From an uncultured Actinomycetota bacterium (GTDB lineage Bacteria; Actinomycetota; Actinomycetes; Actinomycetales; CAWJMD01): a stretch of 64,000 bases of DNA. Position 1 is the stretch's first letter. The number at the start of each line of letters is the position of its first letter. The stretch is taken from the NCBI GenBank assembly GCA_963843835.1, contig CAWJMD010000008.1, forward strand, positions 388,043 to 452,042. The letters are read 5' to 3'. A program made the translations under genes and the position numbers. Below the pieces are notes generated by a model. The model was not told where the DNA came from and ran no database searches. It worked only from the letters and a program-made list of their open reading frames with translations. Positions 2,118 through 64,000 of the stretch are shown piece after piece.

Positions 2118-2118
2118 G

Positions 2119-6716: not shown

Positions 6717-6784
6717 CAGCAGCGTGCCCGTCCGTTCGGGCGGGCGACCGGCCGAGCGGTGGGCCGGCCGCCAGAGACGTCGCC

Positions 6785-7509: not shown

Positions 7510-7594
7510 CTCGAAGCGACGATGACGGTTCGTTGACGTGACCGGTCCACCGCCGGCAGAGCGGGCCGGCGGGGCCACCGGCGTCCGTAGGGTG

Positions 7595-13412: not shown

Positions 13413-13428
13413 CGCGGGGCTCCGGCGA

Positions 13429-47000: not shown

Positions 47001-47162
47001 CGAGGACGAGGAACGGACGTGATGCCGACGATCCGGCGCGACCTCGACGGTGCCGCGCGGCTGCTCGGCTACGCCCCGGCGCACGTGGGCGCGCTGGAGG
47101 ACGACGTCCTGCGCGCGATGCGGCACGCCCGCTCGGTCGTGGAGCGGCTCTTCTACGGCTGA
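44085..47162 (+). CDS. glnE: bifunctional glutamine synthetase adenylyltransferase / adenylyl-removing enzyme
   Basis: About 1025 aa starting at ATG 44085. Duplicated nucleotidyltransferase modules (MGKTGGRELNYVSDVDVV and MGRLGGLELGYGSDADVV). Confidence 0.9.
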   Translation: MTRSGTGGASNRQASPTGTLARLGFAEPDRALTLLQDEALAGLVDPFDDVFDDGLMRALSDTADPDQALLALVRVLTEAHRQQAGSARRGDDDDGLAPGRLHALVRTPGEGRDRLLAVLGASAALGDHLVRHPGHWQALTAPEPELPEELRRDLLSAVGADPDAAVPVATLPVPDALGTLRVAYRRRLLALAGRDLASPEPALVVDRVTLELADLAAAALEAALAVARSELDDHGKGCRLAVIAMGKTGGRELNYVSDVDVVYVAEPADGTDEEAALATGARLASSLARVCSASTSEGTLWPVDAALRPEGKDGPLVRTVASHRAYYERWAATWEFQALLKARPVAGDAQVGRQYVEAITPLVWEAAGRENFVRDVQAMRRRVEAHVPSRESERQLKLGPGGLRDVEFSVQLLQMVHGRAEDRLRTPNTLEALELLSTYGYVGRDDAGALDTAYRDLRVLEHRLQLARLRRTHVMPENDEDRRRLARAARLGGLEGLDKMWRSTRAVVRPLHERLFYRPILAAAARLTADEARLTPDAARARLQALGYTDPAGAMRHLEALTEGVSRRAAIQRQLLPVLLGWFAEGADPDAGLLAFRKVSDALGTTHWYLKMLRDSGAGAERIASVLSGGQYASSLLARLPEATRWLGSDEDLAPRAPSALSAEVATAVARHRDPADAVAAARSVRAREMLRTALGDLAGVVDLTQVGAALSAATVAALEGALTVACRTVALERSVDELPTRVAVIGMGRLGGLELGYGSDADVVFVHDPRDGADEQEAQSVAIAVVTELQKLLRTQGSSPTVDIDTSLRPEGRDGPPVRSLDSYAEYYRRWSSGWEAQALLRAEPMAGDDELGQAFRELVDPLRYPRSGLGAGDVRELRRIKARVESERLPRGVSPGRHLKLGPGGLADVEWTVQLLQLQHGAEHAELRTTSTLGALRAAMHLGLVATADAETLEHAWATASRLRNALVLWRGRGTDVMPTIRRDLDGAARLLGYAPAHVGALEDDVLRAMRHARSVVERLFYG

Positions 47163-47182
47163 AGCGGGCCGTTGCGGGGGGA

Positions 47183-48484: not shown

Positions 48485-48650
48485 CGCGCTCGGTCTCCTG
48501 GGGGGTCGGGGTCGGGTCCGGCTCTCACTCCATGGAACACCCGCCGTCAGCGTGGCATGTCCCCAGATGGTCCCGACAGGGGTGAGGTCGCTCACTCTCG
48601 GAACCCACCGGCCCCGGTCTCGCCGATCCGCGGATCGGGGGCCGACGTAC

Positions 48651-48685
48651 CGACGGCGGCCGACCCGTAGGGGCGGCCGCCGTCG
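48651..48685 (-). terminator. stem-loop downstream of glnA (12-bp perfect stem CGACGGCGGCCG / CGGCCGCCGTCG, 11-nt loop)
   Basis: Read directly. It starts 16 nt after the glnA stop on the minus strand. No U-tract, as is common in actinobacteria. Confidence 0.6.
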
Positions 48686-48700
48686 GGCGTCGGGGCGTGC

Positions 48701-50125
48701 TCAGCAGTCGTAGTACATCTCGAACTCGTGCGGGTGCGGCCGGAAGCGCACGGGGTCGATCTCCTTGGTGCGCTTGTACTCGATCCACGTCTCGATCAGG
48801 TCGGGGGCGAACACGTCGCCCTCGGTGAGGTAGTCGTGGTCCTCCTCGAGCGCGTCGAGCACGGCTCCGAGCGAGCCGGGGACCTGCGCGATGGAGGCGT
48901 GCTCCTCGGGAGGCAGCTCGTAGAGGTCCTTGTCGACGGGGTCGGCCGGCTCGATGCGGTTCTTGATGCCGTCGAGGCCGGCCATCAGCATCGCCGAGAA
49001 CGCGAGGTACGGGTTCGACGACGGGTCGGGCACGCGGAACTCGATGCGCTTGGCCTTCGGGTTCGACCCCGTGATCGGGATGCGGACGCAGGCCGAGCGG
49101 TTGCGGGCCGAGTACACCAGGTTGACGGGGGCCTCGTAGCCGGGCACGAGCCGGTGGTACGAGTTCAGCGTCGGGTTGGTGAACGCGAGCAGCGACGGGG
49201 CGTGCTTGAGCAGGCCACCGATGTACCAGCGGGCCATGTCGGACAGGCCGCCGTAGCCGCGCTCGTCGTAGAAGAGCGGCGAGCCGTCCTTCCACAGCGA
49301 CTGGTGGACGTGCATGCCGGACCCGTTGTCACCGAACAGCGGCTTGGGCATGAACGTCGCGGTCTTGCCGTGCGCGTGCGCGACGTTCTTCACCACGTAC
49401 TTGAACAGCATCACCTTGTCGGCCGACTTGGCGAGGCTGTCGAAGCGGTAGTTGATCTCGGCCTGGCCCGCGGTGCCGACCTCGTGGTGGCTGCGCTCGA
49501 CCTCCAGGCCCAGCTTGTCGAGCTCGAGGCAGATCGCGTCACGCAGGTCGGCGAAGTGGTCGACCGGCGGCACGGGGAAGTACCCGCCCTTGTAGGGGGT
49601 CTTGTGCCCGAGGTTTCCGCCTTCCTCCTTGCGACCGGTGTTCCAGGCGCCCTCGATCGAGTCGATGTAGTAGTACCCGGCGTTCGACTTCGTCTCGAAC
49701 CGGACGTCGTCGAAGATGTAGAACTCGGCCTCCGGGGCGAAGAACGCCGTGTCGGCGATGCCGGTCGACTGCAGGTACGCCTCCGCCTTCGCGGCGACCT
49801 GACGGGGGTCGCGGCTGTAGGGCTCGTCGGTGAGGGGGTCGACGATGCGGAAGTTGAGGTTGAGGGTCTTCTCCGTGCGGAACGGGTCGATGTACGCCGT
49901 CGTCACGTCCGGGATCAGCTTCATGTCCGACTCGTGGATGGCCTGGAAGCCGCGGATCGACGACCCGTCGAACATCTGTCCCTCGGTGAAGAAGTCCTCG
50001 CCGACCGAGGCGGCGGGCACGTTGAAGTGCTGCATCACGCCGGGCAGGTCGCAGAACCGCACATCGACGAACTTGACGTCTTCGTCCCTGAGGTACGAGA
50101 CGACCTCTTCGGAGTCCTTGAACAT
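48701..50125 (-). CDS. glnA: type I glutamine synthetase
   Basis: 474 aa. [42 protein letters not shown], and the adenylylation-loop context NLYELPPEE. Confidence 0.95.
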
Positions 50126-50279: not shown

Positions 50280-50723
50280 GTGGTGGAGCGAAGAGACGTC
50301 GGCGCGTGGCTGGAGGGTCCTCCGTCCGCGCGCGAGAGGGGTCTTGGTCACCCCGGCGAGCGGCTGGGCCTGCCCGACACCGGGCCGCGGTCCGTCGCCC
50401 GCGTCGGCCGCCGGCTGGTCGCGGTCAGCATCGACTGGCTCGCCTGCCTCCTGATCTCCACGGCCTTCTTCGGTGGCGACCCCTGGGCGACGCTCGGCGT
50501 GTTCGCCGCGCTCCAGGTGCTGACGGTGGGAACCGTCGGATCCAGCCCCGGGCACGCCCTGCTGGGCCTGCGGCTGCAGCGCGTCACCGGTGGGTGGGCC
50601 GGCCCGGCGCCGGCGGCGGTGCGCACCGTGCTTCTCTGCCTCGTGCTGCCGGCCGTGGTGTTCGACCGCGACCAGCGGGGTCTGCACGACCGGGCGGCGG
50701 GAACGGTGCTGGTGCGACGTTGA
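50280..50723 (+). CDS. RDD family membrane protein
   Basis: 147 aa. RRLVAVSIDWL, TM segments, and a C-terminal RGLHDRAAGTVLV motif. Confidence 0.8.
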   Translation: MVERRDVGAWLEGPPSARERGLGHPGERLGLPDTGPRSVARVGRRLVAVSIDWLACLLISTAFFGGDPWATLGVFAALQVLTVGTVGSSPGHALLGLRLQRVTGGWAGPAPAAVRTVLLCLVLPAVVFDRDQRGLHDRAAGTVLVRR

Positions 50724-50776: not shown

Positions 50777-51166
50777 GTGGCGCCGGAGAACTGGGGTGCG
50801 TGGACGGTGGCCGCAACGTGGCGTAGGTGTGAGACCTGCCGGAAGGTCCTCTCGGTGAACGACTTCGACGGCGACGCGGGCACCTGTGACGGTTGCCTGA
50901 CCAAGCCTGAGAAGCCCGCCCCGCGCAGCGCGGGGGCCGCCAAGGTGACGACCCGCCGCGTGGCCCCGGCCGCGGGTGCCGCGACGGCCCAGGCAGTCGG
51001 CACGGACGAACGCCGGCGCGCGGCGCCCGTGGGCGTCGTCGGCCGCGGTGACCGGGAGGTCCGGGCCCGTCGTGCGCGGTCCACGGCGCTCGAACGGCTC
51101 GTGGAGATGCACGAGGAGGACTACGAGCGGCTCCTCGCCGAGGCGCGCCGGGCCGAAGGCGTCTAG
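50777..51166 (+). CDS. hypothetical zinc-ribbon protein (CxxC-n16-CxxC)
   Basis: C-terminal part of ORF 50306..51166 starting at GTG 50777. CETCRKVLSVNDFDGDAGTCDGC, then a basic region and an acidic helix (LERLVEMHEEDYERLLAEARRAEG). Confidence 0.45.
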   Translation: MAPENWGAWTVAATWRRCETCRKVLSVNDFDGDAGTCDGCLTKPEKPAPRSAGAAKVTTRRVAPAAGAATAQAVGTDERRRAAPVGVVGRGDREVRARRARSTALERLVEMHEEDYERLLAEARRAEGV

Positions 51167-52632
51167 GTCTTCGGGACGGCCTCCGCCAGCGCCGCCATCG
51201 CGGCGGTGAAGCAGTCCTCGGGCGGCGTCACCAGGCCGGCACCGACCTGGCCCACCCCGGCCTGCTTGCCGGCCATGCCGGTGTTGATCTGCGGAAGGAT
51301 CCGCGTCCGCGCGACGGCCGTCACGTCGATGCCCACCGGGCTGCCCCGGAAGCCCATCGCCGCGATCTGGAACGCGGGGTGCTCGGCCAGGGTGATCTCG
51401 TACATCCGCAGCGTGGTCGAGACCGCGGTGGTCGAGTCGCCGCCCACGAACGCCACGATCGCCGGCGCCGCTGCCATCGAGAAGCCGCCGATGCCGGCCG
51501 TCTCGGTGATCGACGAGTCGCCGATGTCGGGGTTGGCGTCGTCCGGACCGTAGTCGCCGAGGAACAGCCCGTCGGCGAGCTGCGCCGGACCGGTGAACCA
51601 CCGGTCCCCGGTGCCCGAGACCTGGATGCCGAACTCGGTTCCGTTCCGTGCCATCGCGACCACGAGGGTCGAACCGGGCACGTCACGGCCGGCGTCGAGG
51701 GCGACCTTGCAGGCGGGCATCACCAGGTTGAGGAAGAAGTGGTCGTTGCCGTTGCAGAACCGCACGACCTCGGCCACCTGCGCGGGCTCGGGGGCGTCGG
51801 CGCCCGTCAGGTCCAGCAGCTCCGGGACCAGCTCGCGGACGAGCATCATCGTGCCGGCGCGGTTACGGTTGTGCCCCTCGTCACCCATCTGCAGCATCTG
51901 GGCGATGATCGAGCGGATGTCGATCGGCCCGGCGGCCGACTCCACCCGTCGGCGGACGGCGGTCTGCAGCAGCGGGCCGAGCACGTCCGACATCCACTGG
52001 AGCCTCTCGACGACGTCGGACGAGTAGGCGCCGTACCGCAGCACCTTGCCGAGGCCCTCGTTGAGGGAGCAGAAGGCGCTGCGTCCCGAGCCGGGGTCAC
52101 GCACCTCGAAGACCCACATGCTGGGGCTGACCACGCCGGCCATCGGACCGACCGCGCGGTGGTGGTGGCAGGGCGACAGCGTGATCGGTGAGCCGTCGCG
52201 CAGACGCCCCTCGGTCAGCAGGCGCTCGGCCTCGCCGGCGTCGTCGGCCAGGTTCTCGTACAGCATCGCGCCCACCAGTGCCCCACGCATCGGCCCGGAC
52301 GCGTCGGCGAAGTCGAGCGGGGGACCTGCGTGCAGGAAGGTGCCCGGTTCCAGGTCGAGGGCGTCGGAGGCAGGCCGCACGTCGACCAGCTCGGCGCCTG
52401 CCGCCAGCACGCGCCGCACGGCCTCCTCGTTCGCCGCCTGCCGTCGCGGGTCGGCCAGCACTCGACGCAACGCAGCCTCCGTGCCGGTCAGGGGCGGCCG
52501 CCAGTCGACGCGGTGCGCGGTGACCGCCTGGGCCTCCAGCGCGTCCGCGAACAGGTCGACGCCGACCGTGGTCACGTCCGTCGGGCCGGCGAGGAGGCGG
52601 GCGGCGGGGCTGTTCTCGTCCGTCGTGGTCAT
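51163..52632 (-). CDS. allG: DUF1116 protein, YlbE/AllG-like (oxamate carbamoyltransferase subunit family)
   Basis: 489 aa. PCHHHRAVGPMAG, FCNGNDHFFLN and ITETAGIGGF match my memory of the DUF1116/YlbE family. A 4-nt overlap links it to the fdrA-like gene. Confidence 0.7.
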   Translation of the reverse strand: MTTTDENSPAARLLAGPTDVTTVGVDLFADALEAQAVTAHRVDWRPPLTGTEAALRRVLADPRRQAANEEAVRRVLAAGAELVDVRPASDALDLEPGTFLHAGPPLDFADASGPMRGALVGAMLYENLADDAGEAERLLTEGRLRDGSPITLSPCHHHRAVGPMAGVVSPSMWVFEVRDPGSGRSAFCSLNEGLGKVLRYGAYSSDVVERLQWMSDVLGPLLQTAVRRRVESAAGPIDIRSIIAQMLQMGDEGHNRNRAGTMMLVRELVPELLDLTGADAPEPAQVAEVVRFCNGNDHFFLNLVMPACKVALDAGRDVPGSTLVVAMARNGTEFGIQVSGTGDRWFTGPAQLADGLFLGDYGPDDANPDIGDSSITETAGIGGFSMAAAPAIVAFVGGDSTTAVSTTLRMYEITLAEHPAFQIAAMGFRGSPVGIDVTAVARTRILPQINTGMAGKQAGVGQVGAGLVTPPEDCFTAAMAALAEAVPKT

Positions 52633-54185
52633 CGGGTGGCTCCTGCGGGGACGTGGGGGAGGAGGTCGGTGGCCGCGGCCGTGGCCTGGGCGTTGGAGAG
52701 GTAGACGTGGGCCCCCGAGGCCGCGAGGGCCTCGGCCTGGACGTCACGACCCTGCGGGTCGTCCGCTGTGGCCACCAGGGTGACCAGGACGTCCAGCTCG
52801 CGGCCCTGGTCGCGCGCCGTCGCCAGTGCCTGCTCGATCGCCGGCGCGTGCGCCCCTGCCGGGTCGGCGTGGGCGCCGTGGCCGAGGACGACGTCGAGCA
52901 GGAGCACGCGGACGCGGGGGTCGGCGGCGGCGTCGGCGATGGCCTCGAGACGCAGCGTCGGGTCGATCATGGGGTGCGCCCGGCCCACCGTGAGCGTGTC
53001 GTCGCCGAGGTCGACGACGGCGTGACCCGCCTGGCTGAGCGACGCCGTGAGAGCGCCGGGCCCGGACGCATCCAGGGCCGGCGCCCCCTCGAGGGGGACG
53101 TTCGAGGCGATCGCGCCCAGGGTGCGGGAGGCGAGGACCATCGCTTCGTCGCAGAGCGTCCCTCCGGCGAAAAGACCTCGCAGCAGGCTGTTCTCGGGGG
53201 AGGCCGGCTGGTCGAACGTCACCGGCTGGTCCACGGGGACCGGCCGGCCCCAGGCGGGCCAGAGGGGGAACTCGTTGCCAAGCCGTGCGCAGACCTGTTC
53301 GGCGGCCACGGTGAGGCCCTCGGACTCGGGACCGAGCACCGCCCAGACGAGGTCGAGGCCGAGCTCCTCGGCCAGGTGCTCGAGCCTGGTCACGACGTCG
53401 GCGTCGGCAGGCTTCGAGACCAGAACCACCAGCTCAGTCGCCTCATCCACCGCGAGCATGCGCAGTGCCTGCTCGGCTGCAAGGCCTCCGACCCGCGCCC
53501 CGAGATCACGGCCACCGAGGCCGAGGCAGTGCCTGACCCCGATCCCTTGCGCGTCAAGCAGCGACATCAGGTGCTGCGCACCGGTTCCCGACGCGGCCAC
53601 GATCGACACCAGTCCGGGTCGCACGGCGTTGGCGAAGCCGAGGCCGACGCCACCGACAACGGCCGTGCCGCAGTCGGGGCCCATCACGAGGAGACCGCGC
53701 TCTGCGGCGGCCCGCTTGAGCGCGACCTCGTCGTCGAGGTCGACGTTGTCGCTGAACAGCATCACGTGGGCTCCGGCGTCGAGCGCGTCCCAGGCCTCGA
53801 CGGCAGCCGAGGCTCCGGGAACGGAGATGAGCACCAACGGCGTGGGATCGGCCTTGAGCGCGGTGGCCGTGGTCGCCGGCGGCACCTGGGCGGCCTCGCC
53901 GGACTGCCGGCGGGGTGCCAGCGCCTGCAGCAGCGCCTCGAGCGCCGCCTCGCGGGTGGCGTCCGCGTCGTCCGCGTCCAGGCGCAGGGCGACCACCAGG
54001 TCGTCCGGGCTGGTGGGTGGCAGGTCGAAGCCCATCTGCGCCAGCACGTCGAGGTTGAGGGGGGTGGCCATCGCCACCTGGGCCGCGGCCACTCCGGGAA
54101 CCTGTGCGACCGTGCGGCTCACCCCCAGCAGGGTCACCGAGTCGTGGTACTGGCCGTGCCGTACCTCGACGTGCATGTGGCTCAC
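52629..54185 (-). CDS. fdrA: FdrA/AllF-like acyl-CoA-synthetase (succinyl-CoA synthetase alpha-like) protein
   Basis: HVEVRHGQYHDSVTLLGVSR N-terminus and CoA-ligase-like Gly-rich regions. GTG 54185 follows AGGAGGA and overlaps the upstream stop. Confidence 0.75.
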   Translation of the reverse strand: MSHMHVEVRHGQYHDSVTLLGVSRTVAQVPGVAAAQVAMATPLNLDVLAQMGFDLPPTSPDDLVVALRLDADDADATREAALEALLQALAPRRQSGEAAQVPPATTATALKADPTPLVLISVPGASAAVEAWDALDAGAHVMLFSDNVDLDDEVALKRAAAERGLLVMGPDCGTAVVGGVGLGFANAVRPGLVSIVAASGTGAQHLMSLLDAQGIGVRHCLGLGGRDLGARVGGLAAEQALRMLAVDEATELVVLVSKPADADVVTRLEHLAEELGLDLVWAVLGPESEGLTVAAEQVCARLGNEFPLWPAWGRPVPVDQPVTFDQPASPENSLLRGLFAGGTLCDEAMVLASRTLGAIASNVPLEGAPALDASGPGALTASLSQAGHAVVDLGDDTLTVGRAHPMIDPTLRLEAIADAAADPRVRVLLLDVVLGHGAHADPAGAHAPAIEQALATARDQGRELDVLVTLVATADDPQGRDVQAEALAASGAHVYLSNAQATAAATDLLPHVPAGATR

Positions 54186-55141
54186 GCGATCCTCCTGGTG
54201 GTGGTGTGAGAACGGGGCGATGGGACGTGCTGCGGGGTGGCCCCGTCGAGGGCCGTCGTCAGCACGGCGAGCAACCCGGTCGCCAGGTCGGCGCCGGAGT
54301 GGTGCCCGAGGTCGAGGAGGCCGTCGAGGCGTCGCGCCACGTCGCCGGGGTCGGTCGACGGCGGGCCCGCTGCGGGGGCGAGGACGGCGAGTGCGAGGGC
54401 GACGGGCCGGGGGCACCGGCCCTCCGCCACGTCGGCGAGCAGCGCGGTCGAGACGGCCGTCGTGCAGCCGGCCGCGCCGTCGGCCACCGCCCTCGCGACG
54501 GCCTCGACGCGCGTCCGCGCCGGTTCGCCGGGCGCGAGGGCGAGGGCGGCGAGCAGCACGCCCGCGGCCACGTCGTCGCCGCTCGGGGTGGCACCGGGGC
54601 CGAGTCCCAGACGGGACACGAGCAGGTGCGTGGCCTCGGCGTCGCGTCCTTCGGCGAGTGCCCTGGCCGCGTCCACGGCCCCGGAGCGCGCCGACTCCAC
54701 CTCAGGGGGCGGCGAGGGGCGTGCCGTCACGCGAGCCGCCAGCAACCGCGTGGCGTTCGGGTCGGGCCGCCCGTGCGGGATGCTGTCGGCGTCGAACCAC
54801 CGCGCGACCCGCAGCACGTGGTCCCCGAGGTCCGAGGTGAGACGGCCCCCGCCGAGGACCAGACGGCTCCCGTCCGGCAGCACGACGTCGGGACGGGCGC
54901 CGCGCGGGAGCACGAGCGAGCCGGCGGGCACCACGGCACCGGGCGCCACGACGGCCACGACGCGGGGTTCGGCCGCGTCGACCGCGAGGTAGGCCGCCAG
55001 GCGTCCGCTGGTGAGCACGCGCACGGGCCTCGACGGGCCCAGCAGCAGCCCACGGAGGTGGCCTGCCGCCGCGACGGGGAGGGCACCGGACACCAGGCGT
55101 GCGTCCACGGTTCCTCCTCGGGCCACGGGGCGGGTGGTCAC
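54182..55141 (-). CDS. allH: DUF2877 protein, YlbF/AllH-like
   Basis: GLGPGATPSGDDVAAGVLLA and GHHSGADL motifs, typical of DUF2877. It is the first gene of the trio. Confidence 0.65.
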   Translation of the reverse strand: MTTRPVARGGTVDARLVSGALPVAAAGHLRGLLLGPSRPVRVLTSGRLAAYLAVDAAEPRVVAVVAPGAVVPAGSLVLPRGARPDVVLPDGSRLVLGGGRLTSDLGDHVLRVARWFDADSIPHGRPDPNATRLLAARVTARPSPPPEVESARSGAVDAARALAEGRDAEATHLLVSRLGLGPGATPSGDDVAAGVLLAALALAPGEPARTRVEAVARAVADGAAGCTTAVSTALLADVAEGRCPRPVALALAVLAPAAGPPSTDPGDVARRLDGLLDLGHHSGADLATGLLAVLTTALDGATPQHVPSPRSHTTTRRIA

Positions 55142-55289
55142 GGCGCTCGACCGGGGTGCGCCGAGTGGGTGTTGTCGACGCTAGGTGCACGCACTACCGT
55201 CGCCACATGGGAAATGTTGCCAACGATCCTCTGCTCCGGCACCACATGGTGACGACGCGGGGCGTGGGCCGCGTGAGGGCGACGACCAC

Positions 55290-57017
55290 ATGAGCGAGCC
55301 GAGGTCGGCCGACGTCGCCGAGCCCGGGGCCGGTGCCGGTTTCGAGGAGACCGGCGGCGTGCCGCTCGACCAGGTGCTGCGCACTCCGGTGCTGAGCGGA
55401 TCCCGCGTGCTGGCCGGAGCCCAGGGTCTCTCCCGCCCGGTCACGCGGCTCAACGTGATGGAGGTCCCCGACATCCAGCCCTGGGTTCGCCCGGGCGAGC
55501 TGCTGCTCACCGTGGGCTACCCGGTGCGGGACGACCCGGACTCGCTCGGAGAGCTCGTCGAGGGGTTGCACGCGCGGGGTGTCACCGCGCTGGCGATCAA
55601 GCTGGGGCGCTACCTCGACGCCGTCCCCGACAGCGTGCTCGCCATCGCGGACCGGCTCGGCTTCCCCGTCGTCTCCCTGCCCGCCCACGTGTCCTTCGAC
55701 GACGTCCTGACCGACGTGCTCGGCGAGCTTGTGAACCGCCAGGCCAAGGCGCTGGCACGGGCCGAGCGCGTCCACCGTCGCCTGGTCGACGTGGTCCTCA
55801 CCGGCGGGAGCATGGTCGACGTCGCCGAGTCGCTGTCGGACGTGCTGCCCGCCGTCGTCGTGGTGACGACGCCGGACGGCCGTGAGATCGCCTCTGCCGG
55901 ACCGGACGACCTGCAGCGGGTCGTCCGTGGGCAGCCCTGCTTCGACACCACCGGGCGCCTGCGCACCGAGGACCAGTGCGCAGCCCTCGGTCTGCACGCC
56001 GCGGAGCCCGGAGCGGGCACGAGCCCGCTCGTGTCGACCGCGGTGGCGACGGTCTCGGCCGGCGCCCTCGAGCACGGACGGATCGCCGCCTTCGGCGTCG
56101 GGCGTGAGCTGGGCCCGGACGACCTGCACGCCCTGCAGCGGGCTGCCACCGTCTGCGCCCTCGTCGTCACCCGTGACCTCGCCGTCGCCGCGGTCGAGGA
56201 CAAGTACCGCACCGACTACCTGCGGGACCTGCTGCTCGGACGCGCCGGCCGCCCGGAGGACGCCGTCGCCCACGCCCGTGCCTTCGGCTGGGACGTCAGC
56301 CGCCCGCTCGTCGTCGTCGTGCTCGAACCCGACCCCGCGCCACTCGAACCCGATGCCGCCGAGGTCGACGCGGCCCGCCGCCCGACCGTCGACCGGCAGG
56401 CGGCCGCCCTGGCCGGCGCCCTTCGTGCGCGGGAGGGCCAGGCCGCGGTCGCCGGCCTGCGGACCGAGACCGTCGCCCTCGTCGGCGTGCCCTCGGACGG
56501 CGACGTGCGCCGTACCGTGCGCGAGCTCGTCGCCATCGTCCGCGGCGAGGGCGGGGGAGGGCGCCGCGCCTTCGGCGTCGGCGTCAGCCGGGTGTGCGAG
56601 GGCGTCGACCAGATCCCGTTCGGCTACGAGCAGGCGCGGACCGCGGTGCGGGTCGGGCGACAGGTGCACGGGGAGTCGTCCCTGACCCACTTCGACGAGC
56701 TGGGTGTGTACCGGCTCCTCAGCCTGGTCAGCGACGAGGGGGAGCTGCGGTCGTTCGCGGCGGAGACGCTGGGCGAGCTCGCCGGGACCGATCCCGAGGC
56801 CGAGGACCTGCGACGCACCCTCGAGGTGCTGCTGGAGACCAACATCAACGTGGCCGAGACGGCTCGGCGGCTCCACTTCCACTACAACACCCTGCGCTAC
56901 CGCATCGGCAAGCTCGAACGGCTCCTCGGTCCCTTCACCTCCGAGTCGACGCTGCGTCTCGACCTGTCGCTCGCCCTCAAGGTGGTCGCGATGCGTGGTT
57001 TGTCCAACAGCGCGTGA
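55290..57017 (+). CDS. PucR-family transcriptional regulator (purine catabolism regulator-like)
   Basis: N-terminal PucR domain (RLNVMEVPDIQPWVRPGELLLT) and C-terminal HTH (NINVAETARRLHFHYNTLRYRIGKLERL). Transcribed divergently from the allH-like operon. Confidence 0.85.
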   Translation: MSEPRSADVAEPGAGAGFEETGGVPLDQVLRTPVLSGSRVLAGAQGLSRPVTRLNVMEVPDIQPWVRPGELLLTVGYPVRDDPDSLGELVEGLHARGVTALAIKLGRYLDAVPDSVLAIADRLGFPVVSLPAHVSFDDVLTDVLGELVNRQAKALARAERVHRRLVDVVLTGGSMVDVAESLSDVLPAVVVVTTPDGREIASAGPDDLQRVVRGQPCFDTTGRLRTEDQCAALGLHAAEPGAGTSPLVSTAVATVSAGALEHGRIAAFGVGRELGPDDLHALQRAATVCALVVTRDLAVAAVEDKYRTDYLRDLLLGRAGRPEDAVAHARAFGWDVSRPLVVVVLEPDPAPLEPDAAEVDAARRPTVDRQAAALAGALRAREGQAAVAGLRTETVALVGVPSDGDVRRTVRELVAIVRGEGGGGRRAFGVGVSRVCEGVDQIPFGYEQARTAVRVGRQVHGESSLTHFDELGVYRLLSLVSDEGELRSFAAETLGELAGTDPEAEDLRRTLEVLLETNINVAETARRLHFHYNTLRYRIGKLERLLGPFTSESTLRLDLSLALKVVAMRGLSNSA

Positions 57018-57191
57018 CGGCGCTGGAACTCGTTGCCGTCGAGCGGCCTTGAGGGCTGGCAAGACTCGCCCATCCCGCCTGCCTGACACGGACGTAACGT
57101 TCCGTCATCCTGACCGCACGTGCGCTGCGTCACACCTGTCGTGGCGCCAGGGCTCGGTCACCAGCGGGTCCCCTCAGCGAGAGGAACGGGC

Positions 57192-58652
57192 ATGGCCATC
57201 GGATGGAAGCTGCACGGAGACGGGAAGACTCTCGCACCGGGCGAGGTCGTCGCTCCTGACGAGCGACTCACCTGGGGACGGACGGCGGGGCTCGGGGCCC
57301 AGCACGTGGTCGCGATGTTCGGCGCCACCTTCGTCTTCCCCCTGATCATGGGTCTGAACCCCCAGCTCGCGATCATGATGAGCGGCATCGCGACGATCGC
57401 GTTCCTGCTGATCGTGCAGGGCAAGGTGCCCAGCTACCTCGGCACGTCGGCGTCCTTCGTCGGTGGCGTGGCCGCGATCTACGCCCAGGAGGGGACGCCG
57501 CAGCAGGTCACCGGCGCGATCCTCGTGGCCGGCGTGATCCTCGCCCTGGTCGGCGTCCTCATCCACTTCGTCGGTGCCCGGCTGATCTACAGCGTCCTCC
57601 CGCCGGTCGTGACCGGGGCCGTCGTGATGCTGATCGGCTTCAACCTGGCCCCCGTCGTCGCGAACATCTACTGGCCCCAGGACCAGTGGGTCGCCCTGCT
57701 GGTGATGCTCGCCGTCATCCTGATGAGCGTCGGGCTGCGCGGCTTCATCGGCCGCATCTCGATCTTCCTCGGTCTCGTCTTCGGCTACGCGCTCTCGTGG
57801 GTGTTCGACCGGGTCTTCGGGCAGATCACGAGCTACGACGCGGCCGCCGACGACATCACCACCCACTTCCGGGTGAACTGGGCCAACGTCGAGTCGGCGC
57901 CGTGGTTCGGCTTCCCGCCGGCCACCGACACGGCGGCAGGGATCGTCGGCTACCACCTGCCCGAGTTCAAGTGGGTGTTCGTGCTGCTGGTGATCCCCGC
58001 CGTGATCGCCCTGATCGCCGAGAACACCGGGCACGTCAAGGCGGTCGCCGAGATGACCGGCGCCGACCTCGACCCGGTGATGGGCCGTGCGATCGCCGCC
58101 GACGGCGTCGGCACCGTCCTCGCCTCCGCCGTGGGCGGTTCGCCCACCACCACCTACGCCGAGAACATCGGCGTCATGGCCGCCACCCGGGTGTACTCGA
58201 CCGCGGCCTACTTCGTCGCTGCCGGCGTAGCGATCGCCTTCGGCTTCTCGCCGAAGTTCGGCGCGATCATCTCCGCCACCCCGGGCGGCGTCCTCGGCGG
58301 CATCACCGTGGTGCTCTACGGGATGATCGGCCTGCTGGGCGCGAAGATCTGGAAGGAGAACAACGTCGACTTCGGCAACCCGATCAACCTGGTTCCGGTC
58401 GCCGCGGGCATCATCATCGCCATCGGCAACACGTCGCTGGTGTTCACCGACACCTTCTCGCTGGCGGGCATCGCGCTCGGCACGATCGTCACCGTGGGCG
58501 CCTACCACCTGGCCCGGGCGGTGGCACCGCCGCACCTTCGCGCCGCCGCCGACTCCCCGAGCCTCGTGCTCGGCGAACCGGGGATGTACACCCAGGAGGA
58601 GACGGACGGCACGCACACCAGGCTGACCAAGCGGGTGGACCGGCCCGAGTAG
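57192..58652 (+). CDS. NCS2-family nucleobase (uracil/xanthine-type) permease
   Basis: ATG 57192 after GAGAGGA. GAQHVVAMFGATFVFPLIMG and TTTYAENIGVMAATRVYS motifs, with about 12-13 TM segments. Confidence 0.85.
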   Translation: MAIGWKLHGDGKTLAPGEVVAPDERLTWGRTAGLGAQHVVAMFGATFVFPLIMGLNPQLAIMMSGIATIAFLLIVQGKVPSYLGTSASFVGGVAAIYAQEGTPQQVTGAILVAGVILALVGVLIHFVGARLIYSVLPPVVTGAVVMLIGFNLAPVVANIYWPQDQWVALLVMLAVILMSVGLRGFIGRISIFLGLVFGYALSWVFDRVFGQITSYDAAADDITTHFRVNWANVESAPWFGFPPATDTAAGIVGYHLPEFKWVFVLLVIPAVIALIAENTGHVKAVAEMTGADLDPVMGRAIAADGVGTVLASAVGGSPTTTYAENIGVMAATRVYSTAAYFVAAGVAIAFGFSPKFGAIISATPGGVLGGITVVLYGMIGLLGAKIWKENNVDFGNPINLVPVAAGIIIAIGNTSLVFTDTFSLAGIALGTIVTVGAYHLARAVAPPHLRAAADSPSLVLGEPGMYTQEETDGTHTRLTKRVDRPE

Positions 58653-58678
58653 GGCTCGCCCACGAGCTCGACGGCCAC

Positions 58679-58715
58679 GTCGGGCCGGGGCTGCTCCCGC
58701 GTACCCCGGCCCGAC
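58679..58715 (+). terminator. stem-loop after permease gene (GTCGGGCCGGGG ... CCCCGGCCCGAC, 13-nt loop)
   Basis: 12-bp perfect inverted repeat, 27 nt after the stop codon. Confidence 0.55.
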
Positions 58716-58830
58716 GCCTGCCGCCCGGTGACCCGGCCGTCCGCACGGCACCGCGACCCGCGGCGGTGTTGACTGGGCAGGAGCCGACCCGACCATGCCA
58801 CGACGACCGAAGGGCAGGCGCGATCCGTCG

Positions 58831-59724
58831 ATGAAGCCGTCCCCGCTGCGCTTCCACCGCCCCGCCACGCTGGACGAGGCGCTGGCGCTCCTGGCCGACC
58901 TCGGCGCGGACGCCAAGGTCCTGGCCGGCGGGCAGAGCCTCGTGCCGATGCTCTCGATGAGGCTGGCCGCCCCGGCGAACATCGTCGACATCACCGCGAT
59001 CCCCGGGATCGACGAGGTGACGGCCGGACCGGACGGCGTGACCTTCGGGGCCCTGGTGACCCACACGGCCCTGCTGTCGCACGACGGGGCCGCCGGTCAC
59101 CAGCCGCTGCTGCGCCGGGCGCTCCGCAATGTCGCGCACCCCACCATCCGCAACCGCGGCACGACGCTGGGCTCGATCGTCCACGCGGACCCCTCGGCCG
59201 AGATGCCCGCCGTGATGGTCCTTCTCGGGGGGACCGTGACGGTCGCCTCCGCCGCCGGCGGCGAGCGGCTGATCGCCGCGTCCGACCTCTTCCTCGGCCC
59301 GCTGGAGTCGTCTCTGGAGCCGACCGAGATCGCCCTGCAGGGCTCCGTGCCGGCTCGCCGGGGCGGTGTGGGCACCGCCGTCGAGGAGCTCGCCCGCAGG
59401 CACGGCGACTACGCGATGGCCGGCGTGGTCGCCCTGGTCGAGGCGACGGAGGGGGTCGTGCGCGCCGCACGGGCCACGTTCGTCTCCGCCGGTGAGCTGG
59501 GGGAGGTGGTCGACCTCGACGCCGCCACCGGGCTGCCGGTCGACGCCCCGCCGGACGCGTGGGCGGTCGTCGCCGACCAGGCGCGCGACCTCGTCCTCAC
59601 CGACGACGACGTCCACGCGACCGCCGCCTACCGCAGCCACCTGGTCGGTGTGCTGACCGCACGGGCCGTGGCCCGTGCCGCGGTCGACGCCACCGACCCC
59701 ACGACCCAGGAGCGTGCAGCGTGA
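58831..59724 (+). CDS. xanthine dehydrogenase family FAD-binding (medium, CoxM/CutM-like) subunit
   Basis: AGGQSLVPMLSMRL, RNRGTTLGSI and the CO-dehydrogenase flavoprotein C-terminal region (ATAAYRSHL). Confidence 0.85.
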   Translation: MKPSPLRFHRPATLDEALALLADLGADAKVLAGGQSLVPMLSMRLAAPANIVDITAIPGIDEVTAGPDGVTFGALVTHTALLSHDGAAGHQPLLRRALRNVAHPTIRNRGTTLGSIVHADPSAEMPAVMVLLGGTVTVASAAGGERLIAASDLFLGPLESSLEPTEIALQGSVPARRGGVGTAVEELARRHGDYAMAGVVALVEATEGVVRAARATFVSAGELGEVVDLDAATGLPVDAPPDAWAVVADQARDLVLTDDDVHATAAYRSHLVGVLTARAVARAAVDATDPTTQERAA

Positions 59725-60254
59725 GCGACGACGACGTGGACGTGCGCGTCAAGGTCAACGGGGTGTGGCGCGAGGTCACCGTCCCCGGGCGTCGCCTGCT
59801 CTCCGACGTGCTGCGGCACGACCTGCGCCTCACCGGTACGCACGTCGGCTGCGAGCACGGTGTCTGTGGTGCCTGCACGGTCCTCGTCGACGGGCAACCC
59901 GCCCGGTCGTGCCTGATGCTGGCGGGCTCCGCCGACGGGCGCGAGGTGACGACCGTCGAGGGGCTCAGTCCCGAGGGCGGCGGCCTGCACCCCGTCCAGC
60001 AGGCGTTCGTCGACTGCCACGGACTCCAGTGCGGCTTCTGCACACCGGGTTTCGTGACGACGATCGCCGCCTACCTGGAAGAGAACCCCGACCCGACGCC
60101 GGAGGAGGCGACCGAGGCCATCGGCGGCAACCTGTGCCGGTGCACGGGCTACCAGAACATCAAGGCAGCCGTGCTGCGGGCGGCCGAGCTCCAGCGCGAC
60201 GCCGCGGCGGCGTCCGGCCCCGCCGGCACCGTGCAGGGCGGTGAGAACGCTTGA
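59721..60254 (+). CDS. (2Fe-2S)-binding small subunit (CoxS/CutS-like)
   Basis: CEHGVCGACTV and CGFCTPG...CRCTGY cluster motifs. GTG 59721 overlaps the upstream stop. Confidence 0.9.
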   Translation: MSDDDVDVRVKVNGVWREVTVPGRRLLSDVLRHDLRLTGTHVGCEHGVCGACTVLVDGQPARSCLMLAGSADGREVTTVEGLSPEGGGLHPVQQAFVDCHGLQCGFCTPGFVTTIAAYLEENPDPTPEEATEAIGGNLCRCTGYQNIKAAVLRAAELQRDAAAASGPAGTVQGGENA

Positions 60255-62701
60255 CCACCAAGATGTTCGGCGCGCCGATCCGTCGCAAGGAGGACCCGCG
60301 CCTGTTGCGTGGAGAGGGGCGCTTCCTCGACGACCTCGGCCACGACGCCCTCGCGGCCGCCTTCGTGCGCAGCCCGCACGCGCACGCGCGCATCCTGGAC
60401 ATCGACGTGTCGGGGGCTCTCGACGTCGAAGGTGTCGTCGCGGTCTACACGTACGACGACCTGGCCGAGGACCCCGACGCCCCGGTGGCGCAGCCCCTGC
60501 CGCTGCTGATCCCCCATCCCGCCCTGACCTCCCCGCGCACGGGCTACGTGCTGGCGAAGCACGAGGTGAACCACGTCGGGGAGCCGATCGTCCTGGTCGT
60601 GGCGACCGACCGGTACATCGCGGAGGACGCCTGCGAGCGGATCAGGATCTCCTACGACTACCTCCCCGTCGTCGTCGGCGTCGAGGCCGCACGTGCGGCG
60701 GAGCACGCCGTGCACGAGGACGTGCCCGACAACGTGGCCGCGCACCTGGTCCAGGAGGTGGGCGACGTCGAGGCGGTCCTGGCCTCGTCGCCCCACACGC
60801 TGACGCTGGACCTGGAGATCGAGCGCTCCGCCTGCATGCCGATGGAGGGCAAGGGCGTCTACGCCATCTGGAACTCCGACGAGGACTCGATCCGCGTCTA
60901 CACCTCGACGCAGGCGGCGACGTCCGTGCGCATGGCGGTGGCGGCGAAGCTCGGGATGGCCCAGAACAAGGTGGAGTGCATCGCGCCCGACGTGGGGGGC
61001 GGCTTCGGGGTCAAGATCATGCACCCCTGGCCGGAGGAGGTCGTGGTCCCATGGGCGGCCCGCAACCTGGCCCGCGCCGGGATCGCCCGTGAGGTGAAGT
61101 GGACCGAGGACCGCCGCGAGCACTTCACGTCCTCGGCCCATGAGCGGGGCCAGCTGCAGACGGTCACCGTGGGGTTCGACGACGACGGGCGGCTGCTCGC
61201 GCTCGACTTCACCTTCTGGCACGACAACGGTGCCTACACCCCGTACGGGATCATCGTTCCGATCATCACGTCGACCCAGGTGCTCGGCCCGTACAAGCCG
61301 AAGGCCTATCGCTGCAACGCCTTCTCGCTCTACACCAACACCGTCATCGTCACCCCGTACCGGGGAGCCGGACGGCCCCAGGGCGTGTTCGCGATGGAAC
61401 GTGCGATGGACGCCATCGCCAGGTCCCTGGGCAAGGACCGTGCCGACGTGCGGGCCCTCAACCTGATCACTCCGGACGAGATGCCCTACGACCACCAGCT
61501 GCTCTTCCAGGACGGGCGGCCGCTCGTCTACGACTCCGGCGACTACCCGGCGGGACTGGACAAGATCAAGAAGCTCGTGGGCTGGGACGAGTTCGAGGAG
61601 TACCGCGACGCCGCTCGGGCCGAGGGGCGCCGTGTGGGCATCGGCCTCGCCGCCTACGTGGAGGGCACCGGCCCCGGACCGTACGAGGGCGCGCACGTCG
61701 TCGTCGAGTCGTCCGGGAAGGTCAAGGTCGCCACGGGCCTGACCACCCAGGGCCAGGGGCACCAGACCTCGTTCGCGCAGATCGTCGCCGACCAGCTGGG
61801 CGTACCGGTCGACGACGTCGAGGTCGTCACCGGTGACACCCGCCGGTTCCGGTACGCGGTGGGTACGTTCGCCTCCCGTGCAGCGGTGATGAGCGGCTCG
61901 GCGATGCACGTCGCGGCGGGCAAGGTGCGCGACAAGGCCCTGAGGATCGCCGCGGAGGCGCTCGAGGTGGACGCCGCCGACCTCGAGCTGGTGGACGGGG
62001 TGGCTCGGGTCAAGGGGACGCCGGTCGGCACCTCGGGGGCCGAGCTGCCGCTCTCGACCATCGCGGTGCTCTCGAACCCGTTGCGCTACGCGTTCGACGA
62101 GGCGTCGAAGGCGGCCACCCAGTTCAGCGTCGGCGACACCTCCAAGCCCCCGGTGGCCGAGGGGGACGAGCCCGGCCTCGAGGCGACCGGGTACTACTCG
62201 CCCGAGCGCTCCACCTTCGCCTCCGGGATGCACGCAGCCGTCGTCGAGACCGATCCCGACACGGCCGAGGTGAGGATCCTGAGGTACTGCGTCGTCCACG
62301 ACTGCGGGACGCTGATCAACCCGATGATCGTCGAGGGGCAGATCCACGGCGGGGTGGCACAGGGTGTGGGCGGTGCCCTCTACGAGCGGATCGTCTACGA
62401 CGAGCACGGCCAGGTGCTCAACGCCTCGTACATGGACTTCCTCATGCCCTACGCGTCCGAGGTCCCGAAGAGCATCGAGATCGACCACCTCGAGACCCGG
62501 TCCCCGCTCAACCCGCTGGGCATCAAGGGTGCAGGCGAGGCGGGCGTCATCCCGGCCGCGGCGCTGTTCGCGTCCGCGATCGAGGACGCCGAGGGCATCC
62601 CGATCCGTTCCATGCCGATCTCGCCGAGCGAGCTGTTCCACCTGCGCCTCGCCCACGCGGCCGAGTCGCTTGCCACGTCGTCAACGCAGGAGGACCGATG
62701 A
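60251..62701 (+). CDS. xanthine dehydrogenase family molybdopterin-binding large subunit
   Basis: 816 aa. N-terminus RKEDPRLLRGEGRFLDD, active-site loop PYRGAGRPQG, and C-terminal GIKGAGEAG. Confidence 0.9.
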   Translation: MTTKMFGAPIRRKEDPRLLRGEGRFLDDLGHDALAAAFVRSPHAHARILDIDVSGALDVEGVVAVYTYDDLAEDPDAPVAQPLPLLIPHPALTSPRTGYVLAKHEVNHVGEPIVLVVATDRYIAEDACERIRISYDYLPVVVGVEAARAAEHAVHEDVPDNVAAHLVQEVGDVEAVLASSPHTLTLDLEIERSACMPMEGKGVYAIWNSDEDSIRVYTSTQAATSVRMAVAAKLGMAQNKVECIAPDVGGGFGVKIMHPWPEEVVVPWAARNLARAGIAREVKWTEDRREHFTSSAHERGQLQTVTVGFDDDGRLLALDFTFWHDNGAYTPYGIIVPIITSTQVLGPYKPKAYRCNAFSLYTNTVIVTPYRGAGRPQGVFAMERAMDAIARSLGKDRADVRALNLITPDEMPYDHQLLFQDGRPLVYDSGDYPAGLDKIKKLVGWDEFEEYRDAARAEGRRVGIGLAAYVEGTGPGPYEGAHVVVESSGKVKVATGLTTQGQGHQTSFAQIVADQLGVPVDDVEVVTGDTRRFRYAVGTFASRAAVMSGSAMHVAAGKVRDKALRIAAEALEVDAADLELVDGVARVKGTPVGTSGAELPLSTIAVLSNPLRYAFDEASKAATQFSVGDTSKPPVAEGDEPGLEATGYYSPERSTFASGMHAAVVETDPDTAEVRILRYCVVHDCGTLINPMIVEGQIHGGVAQGVGGALYERIVYDEHGQVLNASYMDFLMPYASEVPKSIEIDHLETRSPLNPLGIKGAGEAGVIPAAALFASAIEDAEGIPIRSMPISPSELFHLRLAHAAESLATSSTQEDR

Positions 62702-63348
62702 AGATCAGCGGCACCGCAGACCTGGCCGCACCGCCCGACAAGGTGTTCTCGGCGCTCAACGACCCGGCCGTCCTCGCGGCGACCATCCCGGGGGTCCAGG
62801 CGCTCGACCAGGTGGGCCCGGACAGGTACACGATGACCGTGACGGCCGGGGTCGCGTCGATCAAGGGCTCGTACGACGGTGAGGTGCGCCTGGCCGACCA
62901 GCAGCCACCGGACTCGTTCACCCTCCGCGCCAGCGGTTCCGGCGCACCCGGCACGGTGGACGCCACGGTGCGTGTCCGGCTCGAGGCCGCCGGCTCCGGG
63001 ACCCACCTCGCCTACGACGCGGACGCGGTCGTCGGCGGCATGATCGGCGGTGTCGGGCAGCGGATGCTGACCGGCGTGTCCCGCAAGATGGCCGGGCAGT
63101 TCTTCGGCGCGGTCGACACCGTCATCGCGCAGGGCATCCCCGTGGCACCGGCCGCGGGCGAGGCAGTGGCACCGGTGGCGGGCGAGGAGCTCGTCCCGGC
63201 GGCGGGCATCCGCGTCCCGGCCGCCGCGGTCGCCGGCGACAACCGCGTACCGTTCTGGGTGGTGCTCGCCGGTGTCGGGGCGGGCGCGTTCTGGGCACTC
63301 GCCGGCGTCGTCGTCGGCTATGCCGTGTCACGACGGAGGAGGGACTGA
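62698..63348 (+). CDS. CoxG-like SRPBCC protein with Ala/Pro/Val-rich linker and C-terminal TM anchor
   Basis: The N-terminal ~140 aa match the CoxG family (ISGTADLAAPPDKVFSALNDPAVL...). Then PVAPAAGEAVAPVAGEELVPAAG, then FWVVLAGVGAGAFWALAGVVVGYAV-SRRRRD. Confidence 0.8.
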   Translation: MKISGTADLAAPPDKVFSALNDPAVLAATIPGVQALDQVGPDRYTMTVTAGVASIKGSYDGEVRLADQQPPDSFTLRASGSGAPGTVDATVRVRLEAAGSGTHLAYDADAVVGGMIGGVGQRMLTGVSRKMAGQFFGAVDTVIAQGIPVAPAAGEAVAPVAGEELVPAAGIRVPAAAVAGDNRVPFWVVLAGVGAGAFWALAGVVVGYAVSRRRRD

Positions 63349-64000
63349 TGCGCGCGTTCACCGCAGCCGCGCTGCAGCTGGCGCCCCTGGCCGAACCGCT
63401 CTCGCAGAGCACCATCGAGCGCAACTGCGCCACGGCGGCCGACTGGGTGCGGCGGTGCGTCGACGCGACCGGCGCGGAGCTGGTGGTGCTGCCGGAGACC
63501 GCCTCCACCGGGTTCACGCCCGGCTGCCCGCCCGAGGAGCTCTGGGACCTGGTGAGCTCGCTCCCCGGGCCGGTCACCGAGACCCTGCAGGAGGCCGCCC
63601 GCGCCACCGGGGCGCACCTCGTGTGGGGCACGTACGAGCGCGGACCCGAGCGCGGCGTCGTCTACAACACCAGCGTGCTGATCGCCCCCGACGGCGAGAT
63701 CGTGTCCACGTACCGCAAGACCCACCCGTTCTGCACCGAGATCGTCACGCGCGGCGGCTGGGTCACTCCCGGTGACGAGGTCTCCGTCGTGGACACCGAC
63801 CTCGGACGGATCGGGATGGCGATCTGCTTCGACGGCGACTACCCGGAGCTCTGGCGGATCCAGGCCGTGCAGGGCGCCGAGGTGATCGCCCGTCCGTCCG
63901 CGCTGCTGCGCTCGGCCGACATCGCGGAGCTGACCAGCCGGGCCCGCGCGTACGACAACCACGTCTACGTGGTGGCGTCGAACTCCACCGGGACCGACCC
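63348..64000 (+). CDS. carbon-nitrogen hydrolase (nitrilase superfamily), 3'-truncated by window edge
   Basis: Not in the ORF track because it has no stop codon. My translation from ATG 63348 gives MRAFTAAALQLAP...VVLPETASTGF...YRKTHPF...GMAICFDGDYPE, i.e. the Glu-Lys-Cys triad contexts. The ATG overlaps the coxG-like stop (TGATG). Confidence 0.8.
   Translation, partial: MRAFTAAALQLAPLAEPLSQSTIERNCATAADWVRRCVDATGAELVVLPETASTGFTPGCPPEELWDLVSSLPGPVTETLQEAARATGAHLVWGTYERGPERGVVYNTSVLIAPDGEIVSTYRKTHPFCTEIVTRGGWVTPGDEVSVVDTDLGRIGMAICFDGDYPELWRIQAVQGAEVIARPSALLRSADIAELTSRARAYDNHVYVVASNSTGTD

Follow-up and report, generated by a model that had tools for sequence, protein, structure and literature searches.

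What does an actinomycete break down with a gene cluster that joins a trio of AllH-, FdrA- and AllG-like proteins to a nucleobase permease and a molybdenum (Mo) hydroxylase? Such a cluster fills the right end (51163–64000) of a 64,000-nucleotide stretch of contig CAWJMD010000008.1 from an uncultured Actinomycetota bacterium; this whole stretch is called the window here. The cluster also encodes a PucR-family regulator, a CoxG-like protein and a nitrilase-superfamily amidase. An earlier reading of the sequence (the original prediction) listed ten genes and a hairpin in this layout, all of which were recovered by Pfam and NCBIfam searches and by direct reading. It proposed that the genes serve another N-heterocycle or ureide route rather than the purine–allantoin–oxamate route. 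Our data support this proposal, and since related genomes connect the cluster with a genuine barbiturase and with carbamate kinase, they point to a pyrimidine as the heterocycle. We put the probability that the cluster serves the oxidative pyrimidine pathway, in which uracil or thymine is degraded via barbiturate, at roughly 60%. This view is built on which genes are present, on their conserved order and orthology, and on their physical linkage to a validated barbiturase.

The cluster is a compact form of a gene set that is widespread in actinomycetes. A genome scan was anchored on an alignment of relatives of the Mo subunit, and the best 80 of at least 593 hits were analysed; an enlarged set of 88 related loci was used for the allantoin and carbamate kinase counts. 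Genes in these loci were identified by a custom caller based on third-position G+C (GC3), by clustering of open reading frames (ORFs) and by tblastn with the window proteins. The Mo subunits of the 80 loci are 68–93% identical to that of the window and come from Terrabacter, Pedococcus, Phycicoccus, Knoellia, Embleya, Nocardioides, Actinomadura, Jiangella, Cryptosporangium, Rhodococcus and others, and from many metagenome-assembled genomes (MAGs). Co-conservation of the two arms of the cluster had been set beforehand as a test, and of the 50 loci whose upstream flank spans at least 9 kb, 39, spread over many genera, hold the trio. PucR was found in 40 of the 50 loci with long upstream flanks, the permease in 54 of 63 loci, CoxG in 70 of 72, and an amidase after CoxG in 55 of 68. 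The slot after CoxG is taken by a CN_hydrolase protein in 40 loci and by an amidase-signature enzyme in 9, never by both together.

Further genes appear downstream. HyuA occurs in 41 of 53 loci with long downstream flanks, and in more distant relatives HyuA and HyuB are often followed by an NmrA-like reductase and a family III CoA transferase (the latter in 11/53 loci). Barbiturase was detected in 7 of these 53 loci (8 of 80 overall) and carbamate kinase in 9 of 80; in the enlarged set, 12 of the 88 loci have carbamate kinase distally in the extended cluster. It accompanies the trio wherever the upstream flank suffices, L052 being the one doubtful case. The full layout is seen in Angustibacter (75% identity), with the trio, PucR and the string permease–FAD (flavin adenine dinucleotide) subunit–iron–sulfur (FeS) subunit–Mo subunit–CoxG–amidase–HyuA–HyuB. 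HyuAB is translationally coupled to the amidase there, and the edge of the locus, beyond these genes, holds a CoA transferase and a carbamate kinase. One MAG locus (L035, about 1–8500) has a second, inverted FAD–FeS–Mo set adjoining an inverted trio, upstream of the standard Mo operon, which represents either a local duplication or a paralogous hydroxylase.

The linkage to barbiturase was examined from both sides. The AtzD-family protein of Embleya gave 598 bits against PDB 5HWE ('Barbiturase'), whereas no cyanuric acid hydrolase exceeded 322 bits, and an assignment of this gene as cyanuric acid hydrolase was rejected on these scores. In a reverse test, we inspected the neighbourhoods of three barbiturase orthologues from other genera. 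All three lie directly after a carbamate kinase gene and have HyuAB in the same locus. Streptomyces sp. NBC_00829 carries the string CoxG–CN_hydrolase–HyuA–HyuB–CoA transferase–carboxyltransferase–carbamate kinase–barbiturase. In Spinactinospora a divergent FeS–FAD–Mo set is followed by HyuA–HyuB–NmrA–carbamate kinase–barbiturase, and in Carbonactinospora HyuB lies about 9 kb upstream, across unrelated genes, and is followed by CoA transferase–carbamate kinase–barbiturase. In CP025959.1 (L087), from the Rhodococcus erythropolis group, PucR and upp are read in one direction and barbiturase (bar), an amidase, an aminotransferase, the permease, FAD, FeS, Mo, CoxG, HyuA, HyuB and NmrA in the other. 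This barbiturase differs from the crystallised 5HWE protein at 2 of 369 residues (99% identity), and the Mo subunit encoded next to it is 70% identical to that of the window over 806 residues. Barbiturase and ureidomalonase were described in R. erythropolis JCM 3132 (= CCM2595), as related in papers that cite this work (Soong et al. 2001, 2002, cited in PMC3758960 and PMC3961730).

The R. erythropolis pathway (uracil/thymine dehydrogenase, EC 1.17.99.4; barbiturase, EC 3.5.2.1; ureidomalonase, EC 3.5.1.95) is the nearest point of comparison for the window. Orthologous permease, FAD, FeS, Mo and CoxG genes stand beside bar in Rhodococcus, and PucR is found in both. Unlike the Rhodococcus locus, the window has the trio and a nitrilase-type amidase, whereas barbiturase, the amidase-signature amidase, the aminotransferase, HyuAB and NmrA of the Rhodococcus locus were not seen in the window. 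Hydrolysis of the ureide in the published pathway yields urea and malonate, while for the window a phosphorolytic step that forms carbamoyl phosphate would be expected. The Rhodococcus clusters lack the trio, the CN hydrolase and carbamate kinase and carry an amidase-signature enzyme beside bar instead, which fits the published hydrolytic ureidomalonase. This amidase is a candidate for the orphan ureidomalonase; it is only 41% identical to the amidase-signature enzymes of the post-CoxG slot. In the Rhodococcus versions (L087 3891–6633; L010, L013, L015, L020) the amidase and a class III aminotransferase lie between barbiturase and the permease, and XdhC and an additional PucR gene occur in some versions. 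The textbook pathway offers no obvious role for the aminotransferase.

Biochemically, the oxidative pyrimidine pathway was already known in the 1950s, and hydroxylation of uracil at C6 to barbiturate is a reaction type of xanthine-oxidase-family enzymes. We infer all substrates, the direction of the trio reaction and the regulation from gene context, and the cluster could then work as follows. The NCS2 permease would import uracil and/or thymine, and the FAD/2Fe-2S/Mo hydroxylase, held at the membrane by the tail-anchored CoxG, would convert them at C6 to barbiturate (or 5-methylbarbiturate). Barbiturase and/or the ATP-dependent HyuAB, which are encoded next to the cluster in relatives, would open the ring to ureidomalonate (H2N-CO-NH-CO-CH2-COO-), which is the barbiturase product and a one-carbon homologue of oxalurate. 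AllH–FdrA–AllG would cleave ureidomalonate with phosphate to carbamoyl phosphate and malonamate. Carbamate kinase would then turn carbamoyl phosphate into ATP, NH3 and CO2, and the nitrilase-superfamily amidase would hydrolyse malonamate to malonate and NH3. PucR, divergent from the trio, would control both arms. Malonate as the product fits because some loci continue with CoA transferase and carboxyltransferase genes. The more specific proposal, that the FAD/FeS/Mo enzyme is the long-sought uracil/thymine dehydrogenase and at the same time the trio a ureidomalonate:phosphate carbamoyltransferase, is tentative, and we give it somewhat less than an even chance. In the literature searched, which left subscription journals outside, barbiturase was the only enzyme with a gene assignment, and none was found for uracil/thymine dehydrogenase or ureidomalonase. 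Under the same limit, no work linking the trio to pyrimidines and nothing relevant on ureidomalonate or 5-methylbarbiturate was found. What appears to be new is not the pathway as such, which is known, but the assignment of genes to it and its phosphorolytic lower branch.

The trio forms the left arm of the cluster, on the minus strand. It consists of an AllG-like protein of 489 aa (DUF1116; 51163–52632; PF06545, 318 bits), an FdrA/AllF-like, succinyl-CoA-synthetase-alpha-like protein of about 515–518 aa (52629–54185; Ligase_CoA domain) and an AllH-like protein of up to 319 aa (DUF2877; 54182–55141; PF11392, 60 bits). The predicted 4-nt overlaps within the trio were read in the sequence as ATGA at 52629–32 (FdrA stop and AllG ATG) and GTGA at 54182–85 (AllH stop); FdrA starts either at GTG 54185, in this overlap, or at ATG 54176. 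The FdrA-like protein reached 396 bits with model NF004760, under the cut-off of 433. In E. coli, AllFGH (fdrA-ylbE-ylbF) cleaves oxalurate with phosphate to oxamate and carbamoyl phosphate, and ybcF/allK encodes carbamate kinase (Kim & Kim 2024, PMC11326118). The window encodes the same three families, adjacent and translationally coupled, with identities of 40% to FdrA/AllF (full length), 44% to YlbE/AllG and 36% to YlbF/AllH (C-terminal domain), and a carbamate kinase likewise belongs to the extended cluster of its relatives. Phosphorolysis of ureidomalonate fits because of these identities and because carbamate kinase accompanies the trio. Unlike the E. coli allF-allG-allH-allK genes, the trio is ordered AllH–FdrA–AllG, has no carbamate kinase beside it in the window and no allantoin context, and its FdrA falls under the NCBIfam cut-off. 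Since trios of this type are linked to a Mo hydroxylase and barbiturase, analogy makes ureidomalonate rather than oxalurate the likely substrate. In comammox Nitrospira, allFGHK lies beside biuret/triuret hydrolase genes (PMC12625717). There, too, the trio and carbamate kinase are near N-acylurea-type genes and not near allantoin genes, but in a different phylum, with isochorismatase-like hydrolases as partners and without a Mo hydroxylase.

The amidase gene (63348–64000, plus strand; CN_hydrolase, 138 bits) is cut by the window edge at 217 of about 307 aa. Its translation contains the Glu-Lys-Cys triad in the motifs LPET, YRKTHPF and AICFD, and it is 67% identical to the Streptomyces orthologue that stands in a string with carbamate kinase and barbiturase. 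No NCBIfam equivalog cut-off was reached. Hydrolysis of malonamate fits because an amidase is part of the cluster and because Nit2 omega-amidase is, with PH0642, among its nearest solved relatives.

The same genes can be read differently, with the trio as a true oxamate carbamoyltransferase whose substrate is oxalurate, and with the amidase as an oxamate amidase. The oxalurate would then be made on a purine or ureide route, or by oxidising the pyrimidine ring further, with barbiturate passing through dialurate/alloxan and parabanate. The homology of the trio to the characterised E. coli enzyme (PMC11326118) agrees with this, purine clusters typically include PucR regulators and NCS2 permeases, and the family III CoA transferase matches oxalate/formyl-CoA transferases at 185–215 bits. 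We consider it unlikely. In tblastn searches with E. coli proteins, no homologues of allB, allC, allD, allE, allK, glxR or glxK were found in the window, and none of allB, allC, allD, allE, glxK or glxR in the 88 related loci; neither set contains an allantoinase, an allantoate amidohydrolase or a ureidoglycine/ureidoglycolate enzyme. Allantoin genes are likewise missing within 10 kb in the closest relatives. The original prediction had noted that the window holds neither allantoin-pathway genes nor carbamate kinase, which Pfam scans and tblastn bear out for the former, while the latter was not seen in the window and turned up in the extended cluster of relatives. The prediction had named canonical allantoin genes downstream as the finding that would speak against it; none occurred in the 88 loci, and a purine/allantoin reading was rejected. 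Furthermore, the ring-opening enzyme to which the cluster is linked, barbiturase, forms ureidomalonate, and no enzyme is evident for oxidising barbiturate further. A carboxyltransferase-domain protein is encoded after the CoA transferase in Streptomyces, as would be expected if malonyl-CoA were the substrate.

The hydroxylase and the permease point in the same direction. The Mo subunit stays below the cut-offs of all four xanthine dehydrogenase (XDH) equivalog models (scores and cut-offs 393/780, 374/916, 250/850 and 249/784), and the FAD and FeS subunits are likewise under the XDH cut-offs. The permease (57189–58652, plus strand; Xan_ur_permease, 250 bits) is of the NCS2 type and pyrimidine-type by best match: it scored 340 bits with RutG, 242 bits with UraA and 158 bits with PbuX, all below the cut-offs, and is thus closer to uracil-type than to xanthine-type models.

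The hydroxylase itself is encoded on the plus strand by genes for a FAD-binding medium subunit (58795–59724; FAD_binding_5 and CO_deh_flav_C domains), a 2x[2Fe-2S] small subunit (59721–60254; Fer2 and Fer2_2) and a molybdopterin large subunit of 816 aa (60251–62701; Ald_Xan_dh_C, MoCoBD_1 and MoCoBD_2). They are followed by the CoxG-like SRPBCC protein (62698–63348; PF06240, 84 bits). As predicted, CoxG has a C-terminal membrane anchor, a hydrophobic tail that is kept in 52 of 53 homologues. Overlapping stop and start codons had been proposed for the whole right arm. Those at 59721 (GTGA 59721–24, FAD/2Fe-2S), 60251 (TTGA 60251–54) and 62698 (ATGA 62698–701) are 4-nt overlaps, while the CoxG/amidase junction at 63348 was corrected to a 1-nt overlap (TGATG 63346–50). 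Among solved structures, the Mo subunit is closest to quinoline 2-oxidoreductase (1T3Q, 429 bits) and 6-hydroxypseudooxynicotine dehydrogenase (7DQX, 416 bits). It shares with them the three-subunit FAD/2Fe-2S/Mo composition and a generic YRG.G-type loop; both are distant kin with other gene contexts and substrates, and the window differs in having the tail-anchored CoxG. In its gene context, the FAD/FeS/Mo enzyme is a candidate for uracil/thymine dehydrogenase (EC 1.17.99.4).

Since its nearest solved relatives act on quinoline and a nicotine metabolite, the Mo enzyme might instead hydroxylate another N-heterocycle whose ring HyuAB opens with ATP, with barbiturase and carbamate kinase forming a separate neighbouring module. 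The counts for HyuA and barbiturase given above (41/53 versus 7/53 loci), the translational coupling of HyuAB to the amidase in Angustibacter and the distal position of barbiturase, sometimes behind unrelated genes, agree with such an arrangement. It is nevertheless improbable in our view. In the R. erythropolis-group genome, barbiturase and, downstream of it, the permease and Mo genes share one co-directional string adjoining upp. The three barbiturase loci from other genera all hold HyuAB, and two of the three show CoxG or Mo genes in the fetched flank. The permease is of the nucleobase type, and these clusters offer no alternative candidate for the known uracil-oxidising activity. HyuAB probably has a role separate from that of barbiturase, since it is more constant than barbiturase and co-occurs with it. 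Within the oxidative pyrimidine pathway this role could be, as a speculation, the ATP-dependent opening of 5-methylbarbiturate derived from thymine.

In public records the Mo subunit bears the name of a CO dehydrogenase, and it scored 1481 bits with NF040766 (CODH_aero_grp5, 'aerobic carbon-monoxide dehydrogenase large subunit'; cut-off 950). The M-S-L gene order and the membrane-recruitment protein CoxG also resemble cox operons, that is CoxMSL with CoxG of Oligotropha carboxidovorans and Mycobacterium smegmatis (8UEM) and 'form II' CoxL-like systems. That the enzyme is an aerobic carbon monoxide dehydrogenase with unrelated genes as neighbours is nevertheless very improbable and was rejected, as the active-site loop TPYRGAGRPQG has Gly at the position of the copper-binding Cys388 in VAYRCSFR, the score with the CoxL equivalog TIGR02416 is 424 bits against a cut-off of 991, solved CO dehydrogenases (346–370 bits) are outscored by heterocycle hydroxylases, no coxD/E/F-type genes are present inside the operon, and the neighbours are tightly conserved, translationally coupled catabolic genes in a nucleobase-catabolism context. 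The loop PYRGAGRPQG, which the original prediction had set against VAYRCSFR, was read at residues 369–378. Because of the missing Cys and the gene context, the CO dehydrogenase name given by NF040766 is a probable over-annotation.

Several observations weigh against the pyrimidine pathway, the high NF040766 score among them. Only 8 of the 80 loci have barbiturase in the fetched flank, and always at its far edge. HyuAB, which is far commoner and co-occurs with barbiturase, could be the sign of another main substrate. Instead of ureidomalonate, the trio could use oxalurate or some other N-acylurea, and the substrate of the amidase could be oxamate. Moreover, counts from the best 80 loci describe only this Mo subfamily, and the genes in them were defined by the custom caller. 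Barbiturase, HyuAB and carbamate kinase were not seen in the 64-kb window, which ends inside the amidase gene.

The closest relatives extend this last point. The closest one is a MAG (L001/L002; 93% Mo identity), in which genes for a glyoxalase, an AAA/VWA pair and a FUSC protein come after the amidase, and HyuA/HyuB lie about 6 kb further. In relatives with 86% and 84% Mo identity (L088 and L089) the operon ends at the 307-aa amidase, the next genes are AAA/VWA, LacI and a sugar ABC transporter, and neither barbiturase nor HyuAB nor carbamate kinase occurs within 10 kb. Of these genes, L001/L002 has only HyuAB; barbiturase is absent within 10 kb from L001/L002, L088 and L089. The original prediction had expected the cluster to continue beyond the right edge. 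This does not hold for two of the three closest relatives, whose operon ends at the amidase; it does hold for distant relatives, where the cluster runs on through HyuAB to CoA transferase–carbamate kinase–barbiturase. Since the ring-opening genes are missing from the window and within 10 kb in two close relatives, the ring-opening step is unaccounted for in the source organism.

Other features of these relatives concern single genes. The pair 3′ of the amidase (L001 14599–18107, L088 14499–18022, L089 15452–18909) is conserved in the clade of the window and consists of a degenerate AAA+ ATPase and a VWA protein (Rv0959-like), which loosely resemble CoxD/CoxE-type maturation factors, but the proteins are much larger. 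In L001/L002 the amidase is split into ORFs of 68 aa and 235 aa (13101–14011), and FAD and FeS appear as a single fused call of 465 aa (8595–9992); both are likely assembly errors of the frameshift type.

PucR (55290–57017, plus strand; 575 aa) has PucR, GGDEF_2 and HTH_30 domains. The original prediction had placed such a regulator in the centre of the cluster; it is there, divergent from the trio, and its start was corrected to ATG 55290. Upstream of it lies a 28-codon leaderless ORF (MGNVAND...; 55207–55293, plus strand), whose TGA overlaps the PucR ATG. The sequence around this ORF is conserved: a block found in 32 loci consists of TAnnnT, 7–8 nt, and then ATG-nnn-nnn-GTT-GCC-AAC-GAT (M-x-x-V-A-N-D). 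In 29 of these 32 loci the M-x-x-V-A-N-D codons are in frame with PucR, and they form a separate ORF in the window and in L002. The block is the leaderless start and the N-terminus of PucR, and the conserved block in the AllH–PucR spacer was for this reason rejected as an operator. The out-of-frame arrangement is probably lineage-specific rather than a read error, because it is common to the window and its 93%-identity relative. A crude count of k-mers and palindromes gave no operator common to the three promoter regions, and scans of 55000–59000 with consensus promoters and terminators gave no match.

The strong hairpin that had been predicted after the permease is present as a G+C-rich hairpin with a 13-bp stem (58678–58716, plus strand). 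An 81-nt stretch in this region folds at −51.3 kcal/mol (z = −3.6), and a T tail is absent from the hairpin. Of 59 related permease–FAD spacers, 24 contain a helix of 9 bp or more.

The G+C content of the window is about 73%, and the named ORFs were judged by GC3, which lies between 0.86 and 0.97 for every ORF of the original prediction. The 2Fe-2S gene drops to 0.83 when it is taken as a longer ORF of 231 aa, because out-of-frame upstream sequence is then included. The remaining 51 kb are core actinomycete chromosome with aceE, a fasR-like gene, fabH, acpP, kasA, accD, panB, nadE, glnA2, glnE, ndh and glnA, and contain neither purine nor allantoin genes; for the other 40 genes of the window, Pfam scans gave housekeeping functions only. 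A second PucR-family regulator (HTH_30 and GGDEF_2; 18892–20115, minus strand) stands beside aceE and fabH-acpP-kasA-accD and is unrelated to the catabolic cluster; its position is that of the FasR-type regulator of fatty-acid synthesis in actinomycetes. The nadE gene (40128–41648, minus strand) has a CN_hydrolase N-terminus and an NAD_synthase C-terminus in the same frame, with an in-frame stop near 40902 and about 120 Arg/Ala/Pro-rich codons in the middle. This interruption looks like two compensating frameshifts, due to an assembly error or a pseudogene. The cluster adjoins the nitrogen-assimilation block glnA2-glnE-(ndh)-glnA (41984–50125), with only an RDD-family gene (50280–50723) in between; in the closest relative, too, this RDD gene lies ahead of AllG.

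If the proposed assignments are true, these genes would encode an energy-conserving variant of the pathway, from uracil via barbiturate and ureidomalonate to malonamate and carbamoyl phosphate and on to ATP, in which the trio step replaces the urea-forming ureidomalonase of Rhodococcus. The Mo subunit family would then be misnamed 'aerobic CO dehydrogenase' in public records, which matters for coxL-like surveys that infer CO oxidation; thousands of actinomycete genes now labelled 'aerobic CO dehydrogenase large subunit' fall under the same NCBIfam model. For uracil/thymine dehydrogenase the cluster provides candidate genes, as it does for ureidomalonase in Rhodococcus. It also suggests that transcarbamylases of the AllFGH type have a wider range of N-acylurea substrates and that pyrimidine breakdown could yield ATP. 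The position next to glnA fits nitrogen scavenging by soil actinomycetes.

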